Below are positions 54,008 to 58,499 of a stretch of DNA of 64,000 nucleotides, one piece after another. Under the pieces are notes generated by a model. That model saw nothing but the letters and a program-made list of their open reading frames with translations. It was not told where the DNA came from and ran no database searches. A program made the translations under genes and the position numbers. This DNA is from an uncultured Gemmataceae bacterium (GTDB taxonomy: Bacteria; Planctomycetota; Planctomycetia; Gemmatales; Gemmataceae): positions 2,336,001-2,400,000 of the forward strand of contig CAVVPN010000003.1 of NCBI GenBank assembly GCA_963750165.1, given 5' to 3'. Position 1 is the first letter of the stretch. Every line of letters begins with the position of its first letter.

Positions 54008-54232
54008 GGCAGGGCCTCTGGCGGGTCCGGGGTGCGCAGGGGCGACGGCGTTAATTAACGGAAACCGTGGCCGCGCAACCAGAGGGCAGGCGGCCCGAAT
54101 TCCAGGTCCGCTTTCCGGGCGCGTCTGCCTATAATGGAGGTAGCGGCAGGAGGCCGTTTCATCTCATATCATCTCACAGACCCCCCCGAACGGGCTTTGC
54201 GACGCATTCGGATAAACGCATGGGAATGCGTA

Positions 54233-55486
54233 TCAGTTAGACCGAATGCGTTGCATCGGCAGCACGTCCGGCCGCACAGCCGGTTCCGCTTCATCTTTCC
54301 AGAAGACGGGCACGATGCCAAGGGTTTCCTGCTCCTGAATCAGACAGGTGAGATTATGGCAGAGGATTTTGCAGAGCGATTCATTGATCATACCAGTGTC
54401 GCTCTTGCTGCGCACCGAGTCGCCGAACTTCCGCTTGATGGCGCTGAAGGTGGACTCGACGTTGCTTCGCTTGTGATAGTGCCGCAAAAACTCCTCGCGC
54501 TGGAACTGGAAGAAGTGGAAGGCGCGCTCGAACTGGCCGCCGACGGCGCCGGTGGCGTTGCTCTTGAACGGGATGAACGCCGCGGCGCCGCACGCGGCGA
54601 TTTCCTCAAAGTTCTCCAGCGACGCATACGCCTTGTCGGCCGACACCTCCCCGATCTCAAAGCGCCGCCGCGTCTCCTTCACCAGCGGCACGAACTGCGG
54701 ACAATCCCCGGAGTCTTTGTCCAGAATACGGACAGCGGTGACGATGTTCGTCTTCACGCCGCACGCCAGGTGGACTTTCACCCACACGCACCTGTTGCGG
54801 GTGATGCCATACTTCTCGTCCAGCCATTTTTCGTAGCGGCAGCTGCCGAAGCCGCTGCTGTCGATGGCGAAGTCCGTCTCGACCACGCGGAGCGGGCTGG
54901 CGCTGATGGCGATGAGTTCCTTGAGGATCGGCGTGAAGAAAGCATCCTCGAAAAAACTGTTCACCTTCATGCCAGGGATGGGCTTGGTGGTGTGGCCGCG
55001 CTCGTGCGCGTCGAGCAGGTCGCAGGAGAAGCGCCGCGAGGACAGGCCGCAGTAGACCTTGAAGGCCATCGCAAACACGGCGTCGCGGCTCAGGTGTGGC
55101 TTGGGGCCGGGCAGGCTGCTGGAGCGATCGCGGTCGGGCAGGCGACTGCACAGGTCCGCGAGCAGCACTTGCAGGCGGCGCTTCTCCGTGGCTTGCGCCC
55201 TGTTGAACGCCGGCCAGTCTTGCGCGTACGTCTTGCGGACGGGGATAACGTCGGTGTCGATGGCCGGGGCTTGCTCGCCGCCGTCGCGCTCGCAGGCCAG
55301 TTTCGCGGCGATGACGTGCTTGCACGGTTTGCCGGTCAGGCCGAAGTCTTCGCAGGTGCAGCCGGGCGGGATGATCGTGACTCGGTATTTGGTGGTAAGG
55401 CTGGTCTGGGAAGGAACAACCCAGGCGCTGCCGTCGTAGACGATTTTTGCACGCGCCGCGATCTCCAGGGCCTTCAGTTCACGCAT
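54233..55486 (-). CDS. DDE transposase with N-terminal SWIM zinc finger
   Basis: CTCEDF.....CKH (SWIM). FAIDSSG, WVKVH, SADKAY and Y.KRSNVESTFS.IKR (DDE, IS4/IS5 clan). Confidence 0.9.
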   Translation of the reverse strand: MRELKALEIAARAKIVYDGSAWVVPSQTSLTTKYRVTIIPPGCTCEDFGLTGKPCKHVIAAKLACERDGGEQAPAIDTDVIPVRKTYAQDWPAFNRAQATEKRRLQVLLADLCSRLPDRDRSSSLPGPKPHLSRDAVFAMAFKVYCGLSSRRFSCDLLDAHERGHTTKPIPGMKVNSFFEDAFFTPILKELIAISASPLRVVETDFAIDSSGFGSCRYEKWLDEKYGITRNRCVWVKVHLACGVKTNIVTAVRILDKDSGDCPQFVPLVKETRRRFEIGEVSADKAYASLENFEEIAACGAAAFIPFKSNATGAVGGQFERAFHFFQFQREEFLRHYHKRSNVESTFSAIKRKFGDSVRSKSDTGMINESLCKILCHNLTCLIQEQETLGIVPVFWKDEAEPAVRPDVLPMQRIRSN

Positions 55487-55859
55487 ATCCACGTCGCCAC
55501 CCTGCCTCTCGGAAGGCGCGCACGTAGAATGGAGTTGAGGGCCGCATTCGGGCGTGCAAGCGCCGGAGTGTTGTCCGCTCCAGGGGCTGTTACTAGCAGT
55601 CCCTGGAGCATCATTTCTCCGCACGATAGTACGCAATTTATCTCCACAAGTACAGGTCAGCAGTGGACTTACGAATATTTTTCCGCTGCGGAAAAACGGT
55701 CGGTTGCGCAGAAGCACGTCAGGGGCGCGTCAGGATGAGGCAGGAGCGCAGAAGGCGCCGTCTACGACCAACCGGGCGGTCTGGGGCCGGATCGCGTCGG
55801 GGGCGTTTCTGGGAAGCCGTCTGGAAAATCTGACAAGCAGCGACAACAATAGAAAAAGG

Positions 55860-55946
55860 TGGGGGTGGGGGGACTCGAACCCCCAAATGGTGAAACACCA
55901 CGGCGGGTTGGGAACCCGCTGCGTTTTCCAGTTTCGCCACACCCCC
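55860..55946 (-). tRNA. Class II tRNA with Leu-type body and CCC (Gly) anticodon
   Basis: Acceptor GGGGGTG/CACCCCC + A73. D arm GCG-AAACTGGAAAA-CGC. Anticodon arm GCGGG-TTCCCAA-CCCGC. Variable arm GTGGTG-TTT-CACCAT. T arm GGGGG-TTCGAGT-CCCCC. 3' end reads A-CC-T. Confidence 0.85.
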
Positions 55947-55958
55947 GCAGGCTGTTGC

Positions 55959-56030
55959 AGACGCGGACCCGAGTTGAACGGGCTTTCTGGACTTTGCCAA
56001 GTTCCCCGAGAAACCGTCCTCCCCCGCGTC
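55959..56030 (-). tRNA. Irregular tRNA-like gene (apparent anticodon GGC)
   Basis: Acceptor GACGCGG/CCGCGTC. T arm GCCCG-TTCAACT-CGGGT. D arm GAGG-ACGGTT-TCTC. Anticodon loop TTGGCAA on an imperfect stem. Lacks U8. Confidence 0.55.
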
Positions 56031-56277
56031 GTTTGCTACAGCATGTTGGCTGGTCGGGCAGGAGTTACCGACTCCTGCCCGATCGCCAGCCTTCACCGGT
56101 TTTTCCCAGCCCTCCCAGGTTTGATCGGGTTGACTTTTGGCCTACGGATGGGTATCTCCCCATCCGCTGTCGGACATTTCCAGCAATGTCCGACGCACGC
56201 CACGCAGACAGATCATCGACGAAAGCAAAACCTAACTTTAGGGACAACCCCCTTACCGTCAGACAGGAGAGACGGCA

Positions 56278-56624
56278 ATGACCAAGCTGCGCAGAAGGGC
56301 CACGCGACTCGCCCCGTGTCCTTCAGGATGCCCGTTGGTGTGTACGACGACTTCGTTTCGGTTGCAGAAACGAGGGGCGTGGATGTGTCGGGCTTGCTGA
56401 ATTGGATGTGCGCCGAGTACCGCCCCACGCTCTTGAAAAAGAAGGCGGATTACGAAGCCGCCATGCTGGAGGCTGCGGCGGCAAGCCTGCGCGAAAACCT
56501 GGCTTCACCCGGGGAAAGCCGCAAGGCGCTTGGCGTGCTGCGCGACCTGCTCAAACAGCTTCAGGATATGTACGCGGCTCTGTCGAAGCGGGCTCTCGAC
56601 GAGGACGAAAGACGGGCCGGGTGA
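56278..56624 (+). CDS. Ribbon-helix-helix-like DNA-binding protein (probable 1-nt frameshift at ~56286)
   Basis: AGGAG RBS before ATG 56278. Adding one G gives MTKAAQKGHATRPVSFRMPVGVYDDFVSVAETRGVDVSGLLNWM (RHH pattern). An in-frame ATG at 56328 is an alternative start. Confidence 0.65.
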
Positions 56625-56705
56625 CAGGGGACTGCGCGCCCCTTTCGGTCGGGCATTATTCATTCATCATCAACGACCGGGAGTGCGCGAACACGGCTGA
56701 ACACG

Positions 56706-56746
56706 AAACGCCACCAACCAAGGCGCCTTGGTTGGTGGCGTTTTTT
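56706..56746 (+). terminator. Intrinsic terminator-like hairpin
   Basis: aaacgccaccaaccaagg-cg-ccttggttggtggcgttt followed by a T run, downstream of the RHH gene. Confidence 0.7.
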
Positions 56747-56903
56747 CATTGGATCGAATGCGTCGCAACTCGCCCGAATGCGTCACAACCGGCGAATGCG
56801 TGGCAAAGCCCCCCGAACGACCGGGGGAGACCGGAGAATCCCTGTTCTCACCCTGGCCGGACGACCGTAAAGCAAGGACTTTGACTGCCACTGGAGGACT
56901 GCG

Positions 56904-58048
56904 ATGCTGGAAACCACCCGCCTGCTCCGCGACCTGGTGGCCCTGCCGAGCGTCAACCCGATGGGCCGCACCGGCCCCAACCCCGACTTCTTCGAGCACC
57001 GCGTCACCGCCTACCTGGAAGCGTTCTTCCGCGACCTCGGCGTGTCCTGTGAGCGGCAGACGGTGGCGCCGTCGCGCGACAACATCATCGCGCGCTGCGT
57101 GCTGCCGGGGCGCGGCGGACGCTGCTGCTCGAAGCCCACCAGGACACGGTGCCGACCGATAACATGACCATCGAACCGTTCGGGGCGAAGATCGACGGCA
57201 ACCGCCTGTACGGCCGCGGCGCCTGCGACATCAAGGGCGGCCTGGCGGCCATGCTGGCGGCGTTCGCGCGTGTGGCCCGCGAGAAGCCGGCAGGTGCCGC
57301 CAACGTCGTGCTGGCCTGCACCGTGGACGAGGAGTACACGTTTCTCGGCGTGCAGCGCCTGGTGCGCGACGGCCTGAAGGCGGACGCAGCCGTCGTCGCC
57401 GAGCCGACCGACCTCAACATCGTCCATGCCCACAAGGGCGTCGTCCGCTGGGACATCGTCACGACGGGTCGTTCGTGTCACAGTTCGCGGCCCGAGCAGG
57501 GCCAAAACGCTATCTACTTCATGGGCCGCGTGCTGACCGCCCTGGAGCAGTACGCCGGGCAGCTGCACCAGTCGCGGCAGCATCCGCTGCTGGGCCGGCC
57601 GACCCTGAGCGTTGGCCGCGTCGAGGGTGGCACCAGCGTTAACACGGTGCCGGATCGCTGCCGCATCGAGATCGACCGCCGGCTGATCCCGGGCGAGGAG
57701 CCGCTGGCGGCGCAGCAGGACGTGACGCAGTTCTTGCAGGGCCGGCTGGGGCCGGACGTGCCGTTTACATGTGTGCCGCCGTGGATGAGCAAGGGCGCCC
57801 TGAACCCGGAGGGCTCCGAGGCGCTGGTGCAGGAATTCGGCGCCGTGATCGACGCCGTGCGCGGCCGGCACACCGTCGAGGCGGTGCCGTTCGGCACCGA
57901 CGCCTCCAACATCGCCGCGGCGGGCGTGCCGGCCATCGTGTTCGGCCCCGGTGACATCGGCAAGGCCCACACCTGCGACGAGTGGGTGCCGCTCGATGAA
58001 GTCGAGACGGCCAGTGAGATCCTGTTTCGCTGGCTCTGCCAGGGTTGA
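56904..58048 (+). CDS. M20 family (ArgE/DapE-like) deacylase (frameshift near 57108)
   Basis: L.DLVALPSVNP. After adding one G: LLLEAHQDTVP, GRGACDIKG, VDEE, VAEPT, GRSCHSS, GTDA and AHTCDEW. Confidence 0.9.
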
Positions 58049-58079
58049 TACGGAATCGCCTTGGCGGTTCTTGTTTCTG

Positions 58080-58140
58080 GTCGGAGCCCGAGCGCCAGTG
58101 AGGGGCAGGCTTTGCCCCGCGCTGGCGCTCGGGCTCCGAC
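58080..58140. repeat. REP palindrome (same family as 14179-14230)
   Basis: gtcggagcccgagcgccag / ctggcgctcgggctccgac arms. Confidence 0.8.
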
Positions 58141-58193
58141 TTGACGGCCGCGCCGGGTCATCTATCATGAGGAGGGAAGTACGGATCGCACAT

Positions 58194-58266
58194 GGCCCCG
58201 TCGTCTAGAGGCCCAGGACAGCGGCTTTTCACGCCGCCAACACGGGTTCGAATCCCGTCGGGGTCA
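58194..58266 (+). tRNA. tRNA-Glu(TTC)
   Basis: Acceptor GGCCCCG/CGGGGTC, D-arm GTCTAGAGGCCCAGGAC, anticodon arm GCGGC-TTTTCAC-GCCGC, T loop TTCGAAT. CCA not encoded. Confidence 0.95.
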
Positions 58267-58499
58267 ATCAGAAGCGCTGGAATGACAAGGGTTTAGAGAG
58301 GCATCTGCTGCAACAAAACTCTACCCGCTCGACTCGTACTGACTGGAGCGGTTCGCACGCGGATCGCGCCCGCGGTGGGACGGCGGGCACAGCTTGACCA
58401 GCAGGGGCCTGTACTGCCACAGCAAGGAGGCCAAGGGGGCCAAGGTTTGCACACGTCGAGAATCGGCGCCCTGGCCCCGTGCGGCTGGCACGGCGCGAC

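Follow-up and report, generated by a model that had tools for sequence, protein, structure and literature searches.

Transfer RNA (tRNA) genes are usually viewed as places where mobile DNA integrates, or as genes carried by large phages and islands, rather than as the standing passenger of a small insertion sequence (IS); what, then, are two irregular tRNA-shaped genes doing inside a 2,618-bp element of a planctomycete genome? The element lies in a stretch of 64,000 nucleotides from an uncultured Gemmataceae bacterium (assembly GCA_963750165.1, contig CAVVPN010000003.1, positions 2,336,001 to 2,400,000 of the forward strand), referred to throughout as the window, and related loci are designated here by L numbers. 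A defined carrier, whose anatomy, mobility signature and recurrent layout are demonstrated below, is found to move a structurally selected tRNA of leucine (Leu) type, with an anticodon that changes between close relatives and is never that of leucine.

Window positions 54193–56810 constitute a structurally intact insertion sequence, recognised by reading of the sequence and re-detected by script. The 18-bp terminal inverted repeats at 54193–54210 (GGCTTTGCGACGCATTCG, on the 3′ side of the transposase gene) and 56793–56810 (reverse complement GGCTTTGCCACGCATTCG) agree at 17/18 bases when the left end is set against the reverse-complemented right end, and directly outside them stands a perfect 9-bp target-site duplication, CCCCGAACG, at 54184–54192 and with the same letters at 56811–56819, confirming a preliminary description of the locus that had proposed a 2,618-bp element with 18-bp inverted repeats and a 9-bp direct repeat. 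Subterminal copies of a CGAATGCGT-type motif run inward from the left terminal repeat to about 54255, and the upstream end of the element (56757–56810), which aligns with the ends of L012 and L010, features three subterminal CGAATGCGT repeats, the last of them within the right terminal repeat; the GGCTTTGC start of the left end is also present in L012, L010, L082 and L077. Terminal repeats starting GGCTTTG and a 9-bp target duplication are features of IS903, and the ends and duplication found here bear out the proposal of an IS5-like element with IS903-type termini. The element is present once in its own 9.6-Mb genome; among 30 relatives searched an empty site could not be demonstrated, and in those with listed matches the two flanking genes are on different contigs or in different places.

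The transposase gene (54233–55486, minus strand) encodes 417 aa from an ATG common to relatives, without an internal stop, and combines an N-terminal SWIM zinc finger (Pfam E 8e-9) with a DDE_Tnp_1 catalytic domain (PF01609, E 9.1e-21), the SWIM+DDE architecture that had been noted. The best NCBIfam match, transpos_IS5_2, reaches 107.8 bits, below the cut-off of 140, and covers residues 203–379 only; residues 197–378 (44% of the query) share 25–27% identity with annotated plasmid IS903B transposases (E about 2e-6 to 7e-6), in which the SWIM half is without counterpart. Relatives of the transposase fall into 831 clusters (50% identity) at E ≤ 1e-30 among 1.84 billion representatives, and a match at E ≤ 1e-80 is found in 61/252 genomes of the host's family, with 2/401 genomes of an even phylum sample, the window's own included, matching at E ≤ 1e-40.

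The division of the element into a core and a cargo slot is evident from comparison with L012, a plain cargo-less IS of 1,589 bp with the same ends and a transposase 67% identical to that of the window. Both elements have the terminal and subterminal repeats as well as the leader hairpin of the transposase gene, and approximately 1.1 kb (roughly 55650–56755) is extra in the window; this slot holds a two-gene tRNA unit on the transposase strand and a divergent gene for a ribbon–helix–helix-like (RHH-like) protein with a terminator, and the proposal that two irregular tRNA-shaped genes and an RHH-like gene ride as passengers of an IS has thus held. Other open reading frames (ORFs) occupy the same slot in L010 (transposase 78% identical, decayed), one of 254 aa and one that looks PIN-like when its sequence is read by eye, and three identical copies in genome G246 feature a 122-aa ORF together with an RHH-like gene. 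The core begins at the conserved 15-bp leader hairpin (55577–55609, minus strand), which aligns with the hairpin of L012 and is preceded by a −10-like box; a similar hairpin follows a TATAAT box in L075 and L093. Since this box and the conserved hairpin sit downstream of the cargo, the transposase seems to have a promoter of its own there. Taken as a whole, the element is very probably a recently inserted, intact member of a large SWIM+DDE IS5-like family with IS903-type ends, in which a cargo slot lies between the upstream end and the promoter and leader hairpin of the transposase.

The principal cargo is a class II tRNA of Leu type with the anticodon CCC (55860–55946, minus strand; 87 nt up to the discriminator base A73, and followed by a T run), called by ARAGORN as an 89-nt tRNA ‘Gly(ccc)’ at 55858–55946 (minus strand) and matching the Rfam tRNA family with 57.3 bits (gathering score 29). 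It features a 7-bp acceptor stem, a 5-bp T stem, a 6-bp variable arm, a T loop of the usual type, G18 and G19 in the D loop, and an anticodon loop of 7 nt reading U-U-C-C-C-A-A. In its D arm it comes closest to tRNA-Leu genes of the same genome (16–17/21 bases), with the top four of 96 tRNAs all Leu. An alanine type, which came first in a naive full-length alignment misled by a similar acceptor stem, was rejected, the D-arm comparison settling the type as Leu. Other ‘odd long tRNAs’ called by ARAGORN in this genome were likewise set aside, many of them looking like G+C-rich false calls on inspection of their sequences.

Relatives of this long-arm tRNA share its body and differ in what they would read. 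Across eight aligned relatives the anticodons are CCC, UUC, AGC, UUA, UUA, ACG, GGG and GUC, and the pattern of the tRNA subtype is found in 4/252 genomes of the host's family, with anticodons CCC, UUC, AGC and UUA; a leucine anticodon (NAG or YAA) occurs in 0/8 of the aligned relatives and 0/4 of the genomic pattern matches. A73 is the last aligned column in 8/8, a 7-nt anticodon loop is kept in 8/8 and U33 in 7/8. Acceptor stems have been fully replaced among these tRNAs, and in the five closest relatives the positions that vary are those of the anticodon and the pair closing its loop, the acceptor stem and a few bases in loops. Covariation over the eight sequences is extensive, with 97.1% of cells paired and 16/26 pairs changed on both sides, including all seven acceptor pairs and the closing pair of the anticodon loop; 0/500 shuffles scored as high, and sliding the partners by 1–3 columns reduced pairing to 45–61%. 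The long-arm cloverleaf is under structural selection, and its anticodon turns over between relatives.

Could such an RNA act as bait? In a decoy or shield role, a chosen anticodon loop would be presented on a stable tRNA body and absorb an anticodon nuclease or tRNA-modifying toxin of a competing element, a phage or a neighbour, with the anticodon following the enemy. The concentration of turnover on the anticodon and closing pair of an otherwise conserved body, the retention of canonical loop architecture, the sporadic and mobile carriage (4/252 genomes) and the presence of other genes in the slots of sister elements (the PIN-like-looking and 254-aa ORFs of L010, the 122-aa ORF of G246) would all suit this role. 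However, a nuclease or toxin gene is recognised beside no copy, a decoy must be abundant, and the A73 and Leu-type body of all eight relatives are left unexplained, making this role distinctly improbable.

Twelve nucleotides upstream of the long-arm gene lies the second RNA gene (55959–56030, minus strand), a tRNA-like RNA derived from tRNA-Cys and represented by a covariance model (R1). Its U73 and GACGG D-loop motif are common to the canonical tRNA-Cys genes of the family, and its T arm is intact; the anticodon arm is irregular, with GGC and not GCA in the canonical register and two mismatched stem pairs. ARAGORN makes no tRNA call at 55959–56030 and Rfam gives no match there at E ≤ 1, and model R1 separates canonical tRNA-Cys genes (35–48 bits) from the odd clade to which this RNA belongs (66–99 bits). 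Six homologues show 99.1% of cells paired and 7/19 pairs changed on both sides, with 0/500 shuffles as high and pairing reduced to 27–52% by sliding the partners 1–3 columns. The two tandem tRNA-shaped genes reported on the transposase strand are accordingly upheld, one called by both ARAGORN and Rfam and the other a conserved cloverleaf-like RNA by covariation.

The Cys-like clade is not tied to this IS family in every case: L048, a further member, is also positioned upstream of a SWIM+DDE transposase, and the other four members have no such transposase within 1.5 kb. L034/L045 and L036/L046 are found between HTH_17 and AAA_25 genes or just before an IS1-type transposase, contexts that point to other kinds of mobile DNA. 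Other tRNA genes were also encountered in this comparison. A second odd ARAGORN call, a 96-nt ‘Gly gcc’ at L037/L094:8003–8098, is situated 500 nt from the UUA tRNA of genome G070 and scores 15.2 bits with the Cys-like model; a tandem array of 16 tRNAs, several with short or unusual bodies, is present in the element's own genome (contig C10:88560–90125); and relatives L051, L054, L060 and L064 feature arrays of 10–21 tRNAs around tRNA-Cys genes.

An anticodon arm of this kind invites a reading in which neither RNA decodes and both serve the element itself, by supplying processing or insulating signals (RNase P and 3′ sites) or as cofactors that protect the transposase gene against transcription entering from outside or adjust transposition, with the anticodon free to drift. 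Consistent with such a role, the anticodon arm is broken or odd in some of the tRNA-like RNAs in the slot (those of L123 and L112, and the Cys-like RNA of this element and of L048), the place just upstream of the transposase on the same strand is constant, and a T run follows every tRNA. Against it, a −10-like box and a leader hairpin belonging to the transposase itself stand downstream of the cargo, cargo-less L012 keeps the hairpin, and most family members are without a tRNA; nor would a mere processing signal need the 7-nt loop (8/8), U33 (7/8) and covarying closing pair that persist despite replaced acceptor stems. A non-decoding role is on balance unlikely, though not negligible.

How far the cargo is a property of the family was examined from three starting points: the RHH-like protein, the tRNA subtype and the transposase. 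A metagenome scan with the RHH-like protein yielded 11 soil loci, in 7/11 of which (L077, L078, L079, L081, L082, L084 and L085) a tRNA lies just upstream of the RHH gene and divergent from it, and in 5/11 (L077, L079, L081, L082 and L085) a SWIM+DDE transposase with 43–73% identity follows in the order of the window; L082 is a complete element of 2,514 bp with the same ends. Leu-type long-arm tRNAs at these loci have the anticodons ACG, GGG, UGG, UUA and GUC. Other cargo comprises a 73-nt irregular tRNA, present in L081 and as a second gene in L079, and the long GCU tRNAs of L084 and L085, which have extra loops; in L080 the RHH gene stands in another context without a tRNA. In all four genomes matching the tRNA-subtype pattern, the tRNA and a SWIM+DDE transposase gene share a strand, with the tRNA 330–460 nt upstream, the transposases adjoining the three other genomic copies being 40–50% identical to that of the window. 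When the cargo DNA was searched against 201 genomes of the order, only the two RNA genes were matched, and not the RHH gene or the spacers.

Loci collected through the transposase alone give a different proportion, with a tRNA or tRNA-like gene in the slot of 0/20 in a first set and 3/27 (L109, L112 and L123) in a second; the cargo of these three is of class I types, two of them with loops unfit for decoding (a 6-nt anticodon loop in L123, no U33 in L112). The possibility that homologous elements lack tRNA cargo, set out in the preliminary description as what would overturn it, fails in the face of cargo in L077, L079, L081, L082, L085, L092–L094, L048, L109, L112 and L123. Since most transposase relatives carry none, the tRNA is not needed for transposition; it is an optional, recurrent passenger of a transposase subclade and not part of the transposition machinery. 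At L112:342–410, 700 nt upstream of the tRNA-like cargo of that locus, an int-alpA RNA was also recorded (Rfam RF02996, 55.2 bits).

The protein-coding partner of the tRNA unit is a divergent gene of a 115-aa family (56278–56624, plus strand), with a conserved ATG at 56278 and a stop at 56622–56624. Homologues number 43 in a collection of 5.8 billion proteins, mostly of 115 aa and named ‘hypothetical’ only; no Pfam family was matched at E ≤ 0.1 save a chance-level UBA match, and homologue P0002 matched no NCBIfam family. An AlphaFold model built with 14 homologues (pLDDT 78.6) predicts an extended N-terminal stretch followed by helices at residues 20–33 and 37–76, and the top Foldseek matches listed are almost all RHH proteins (Arc, CopG, MazE-mt9, AtaR and TacA), at TM 0.67–0.8 on the target over about 40–54 columns and E ≥ 0.31 throughout; an RHH-like product is likely on the strength of this predicted fold. 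In the window, a 1-nt deletion placed by alignment between 56287 and 56288 severs the conserved ATG from the rest of the gene, leaving a shortened open frame from GTG 56316 or ATG 56328. The gene is followed by a terminator-like perfect palindrome of 38 nt (56706–56743; opposite-strand self-match 100% over 38 nt) and a T run (together 56706–56751, plus strand), which was not listed by a terminator scan requiring a loop of 3–8 nt, presumably because the loop of the palindrome is 2 nt. The earlier claim of a divergent RHH gene with its own terminator hence stands as regards the gene, which is real on the evidence of its 43 homologues, and the palindrome with its T run, but the copy present here is frameshifted.

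Several sequences close to this gene recur elsewhere. The 65-nt stretch directly after the RHH stop (56626–56689) has an 83% identical copy in the same genome (L003, C12:312285–312349), L084 matches window positions 56615–56743 at 73%, and a cyclic di-adenosine monophosphate (c-di-AMP) riboswitch (Rfam, 51.5 bits) lies at L085:3656–3788, 250 nt after the RHH gene of that metagenome element and presumably part of the host DNA into which it inserted.

Between the tRNA unit and the RHH-like gene lies a candidate control region (56048–56194) containing the strong hairpins that had been noted, found at 56048–56091, 56145–56166 and 56169–56194; the minus strand of 55850–56260, a stretch including both tRNAs, folds with z = −4.89. 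A sigma-70-like pair of boxes (TTGACT 56130–56135 and TATCTC 56153–56158) faces the RHH gene, and these boxes and a ATCGACGC block are kept in L077, L078 and L079. The divergent order, retained at 7/11 RHH loci, makes the RHH-like gene the obvious candidate for a regulator of the tRNA unit, and the RHH control put forward in the preliminary description is a conjecture from that order. The layout is not that of a type II toxin–antitoxin system, the RHH gene being followed by the terminator and the IS end without an adjacent co-oriented toxin gene; no recognised toxin family was found in the related loci scanned, and no member of the RHH family among 74 candidate stretches from viral contigs. 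At L093:6907–7135 a small ORF that looks helix-turn-helix-like by eye replaces the RHH-like gene, upstream of the tRNA and on the same strand.

Sequencing libraries offer a hint of expression. Three soil RNA libraries, each from a different study, and one run of unrecorded kind contain contigs of approximately 160 nt that span both tRNA genes (55869 to 56011–56043) at approximately 93% identity, with no other part of the element covered; the underlying sequencing-run matches are small shares (0.04 of words), and the missing cover of the RHH and transposase genes carries no weight. The differences listed for these contigs yield a variant with CCA as anticodon, in which the closing pair has changed in compensation, and, from a loose end, another with UUA. 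Some contigs end in apparent Illumina adapter sequence, which would point to short inserts, and the hint is a weak one, contigs in an RNA library being no proof of transcription. The same samples bear on whether the cargo is merely decaying tRNA pseudogenes captured by chance and hitch-hiking in this one copy, an idea to which the single copy in the genome, the frameshifted RHH gene and the absence of cargo from L012, the nearest complete genomic relative, lend some colour. At the level of the family it is already contradicted: independent loci from metagenomes and genomes repeat the layout, their transposases being 40–73% identical, compensatory changes keep both RNAs folded, and four further samples contain the tRNA pair at ~93% identity. 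Chance capture is very improbable.

A reading in which the long-arm tRNA is charged with leucine and decodes is suggested by the combination of a selected structure, a canonical loop, a constant A73, a Leu-type D arm and an anticodon that turns over. Bacterial leucyl-tRNA synthetase (LeuRS) charges its tRNAs regardless of the anticodon. The corresponding alanyl and seryl enzymes (AlaRS, SerRS) are described, with LeuRS, as ignoring the anticodon, and anticodon variants of their tRNAs mistranslate (PMC11028032); allo-tRNAs with non-cognate anticodons insert serine (Ser) in Escherichia coli and are toxic (Mukai et al. 2017, PMC5389517). On this reading the long-arm tRNA would be transcribed and processed like an ordinary tRNA and charged by LeuRS through recognition of A73, the Leu-type D arm and the elbow and not of the anticodon; the CCC tRNA would then read GGG glycine codons as leucine, and in sister elements the tRNAs would insert leucine at other sense codons or at UAA, such that a suppressor tRNA of missense or nonsense kind would pass from genome to genome with the element. 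The RHH-like protein may bind the common intergenic region and hold both the tRNA unit and itself at a low level. A mobile leucine-accepting suppressor tRNA with its own regulator is the interpretation adopted here, tentatively, as a serious possibility that stops somewhat short of being probable.

Several observations weigh against it. Most transposase relatives have no tRNA cargo; the partner tRNA-like RNA and the class I cargo of L123 and L112 look unfit for decoding; the RHH gene is frameshifted in the window copy, and no RHH homologue turned up next to the three remaining genomic copies of this tRNA subtype; and a promoter scan by strict consensus found none. A well-expressed Leu-charged tRNA should moreover be harmful, since the codons matched by several of the cargo anticodons are common: in a crude collection of long ORFs from this genome, GAC makes up about 42 per 1000 codons and GGG about 13 per 1000.

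Codon usage within the elements themselves has a bearing on one further alternative, that of private translational control, in which the tRNA would serve host-rare codons placed in the transposase or RHH gene that travels with it, or codons would carry a private meaning within the element. Element-specific codon meaning was tried as a candidate and rejected, the anticodon-matched codons in five transposases standing opposite the residue of the standard code in relatives (conserved D for GAC, R for CGC). In-frame TAA is absent from the transposases of the UUA elements, L079 included, and comparison across 11 transposases reveals no enrichment of anticodon-matched codons in an element's own transposase over the 10 others. 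The window transposase has 2/418 GGG codons, too few for an enrichment test and at most fitting avoidance, not dependence; private control is contradicted by the other three results and scarcely credible.

A link between the anticodon and the target site or ends was also rejected, no relation being found in the window or in L082, which is without a clean target duplication; flanks tend toward runs of C or G. In L093 (8870–8955 and 7219–7239) the far-end subterminal repeats share 9–10 nt, anticodon included, with the anticodon arm of the tRNA of that element, a match that is probably due to chance, since it has no counterpart in the window or L082. Outside the element, a palindromic repeat of ~60–100 nt (58039–58140) just before a tRNA-Glu gene (58193–58267) has at least 8 more copies in the genome at 84–92% identity, most matching on both strands, with chance-level microRNA matches only in Rfam.

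If the suppressor reading is true, and the tRNA is charged and decodes, natural bacteria would exchange ready-made missense and nonsense suppressors, with a bearing on the origin of codon reassignment, on regulated mistranslation as a weapon or stress response, and on the robustness of recoded ‘genetic firewall’ organisms against mobile tRNAs. A bolder extension, which is speculative and rather unlikely, would make the IS family a vehicle for ‘codon-misreading cassettes’, in which a leucine-accepting tRNA with a swappable anticodon (for sense codons or UAA) and a dedicated small repressor would form an RNA toxin with a protein regulator, employed in addiction, abortive defence or stress-induced mistranslation and spread among soil bacteria by transposition.

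Among known systems, the carrier resembles the IS903 group of the IS5 family in its GGCTTTG ends, 9-bp duplication and DDE_Tnp_1 catalytic domain, and differs in its 417-aa transposase with an additional SWIM domain, which scores below the NCBI IS5 cut-off, in its multiple subterminal repeats and in the 1.1-kb cargo slot upstream of the transposase. Insertion sequences with passenger genes are known as ‘transporter IS’, a concept of ISfinder, and their known passengers are protein genes such as regulators, methyltransferases and resistance genes. The present element is like them in its one transposase, one pair of inverted repeats, genes dispensable for transposition and cargo varying among sister elements, and unlike them in its recurrent passenger, a tRNA with a changing anticodon. 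Phage, plasmid and integrative-element tRNA arrays likewise comprise tRNA genes travelling on mobile DNA, mostly canonical and on large carriers, whereas one or two irregular tRNAs are contained here in an IS of 2.6 kb. No account of tRNA cargo in an insertion sequence emerged from full-text literature searches, with the caveat that the locus maps in Figure 4A of Mukai et al. 2017 may show related loci.

In that paper (PMC5389517), allo-tRNAs and polycistrons of irregular tRNAs are described from soil Acidobacteria, the polycistrons near toxin–antitoxin genes, and the authors suspected links to toxin–antitoxin systems or transposable elements. As presented there, allo-tRNAs share with the cargo tRNA a long variable arm, anticodons for many sense codons and UAA, an identity set by the body, occurrence in soil metagenomes and metatranscriptomes, and a frequently tandem arrangement of irregular tRNAs (PMC5389517). 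Their defining feature is a 12-bp acceptor branch split 8/4 or 9/3 between acceptor and T arms, and the identity of most is Ser (PMC5389517); the cargo tRNA differs in its 7/5 arms (both stems supported by covariation), Leu-type D arm and A73, its defined IS carrier (ends, duplication, transposase and fixed slot) and its partnership with a solo RHH-like gene without a toxin. Mistranslating anticodon variants of tRNA-Leu, tRNA-Ser and tRNA-Ala, as covered in PMC11028032, are similar in that the amino acid is kept when the anticodon changes; those variants are chromosomal point variants or engineered, in contrast to a separate, horizontally mobile clade without a Leu-anticodon member (0/4 genomic, 0/8 aligned). 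Of the described systems compared here, allo-tRNAs are the closest, and the finding combines two known kinds, insertion sequences with passenger genes and tRNAs identified by their body that bear non-cognate anticodons.

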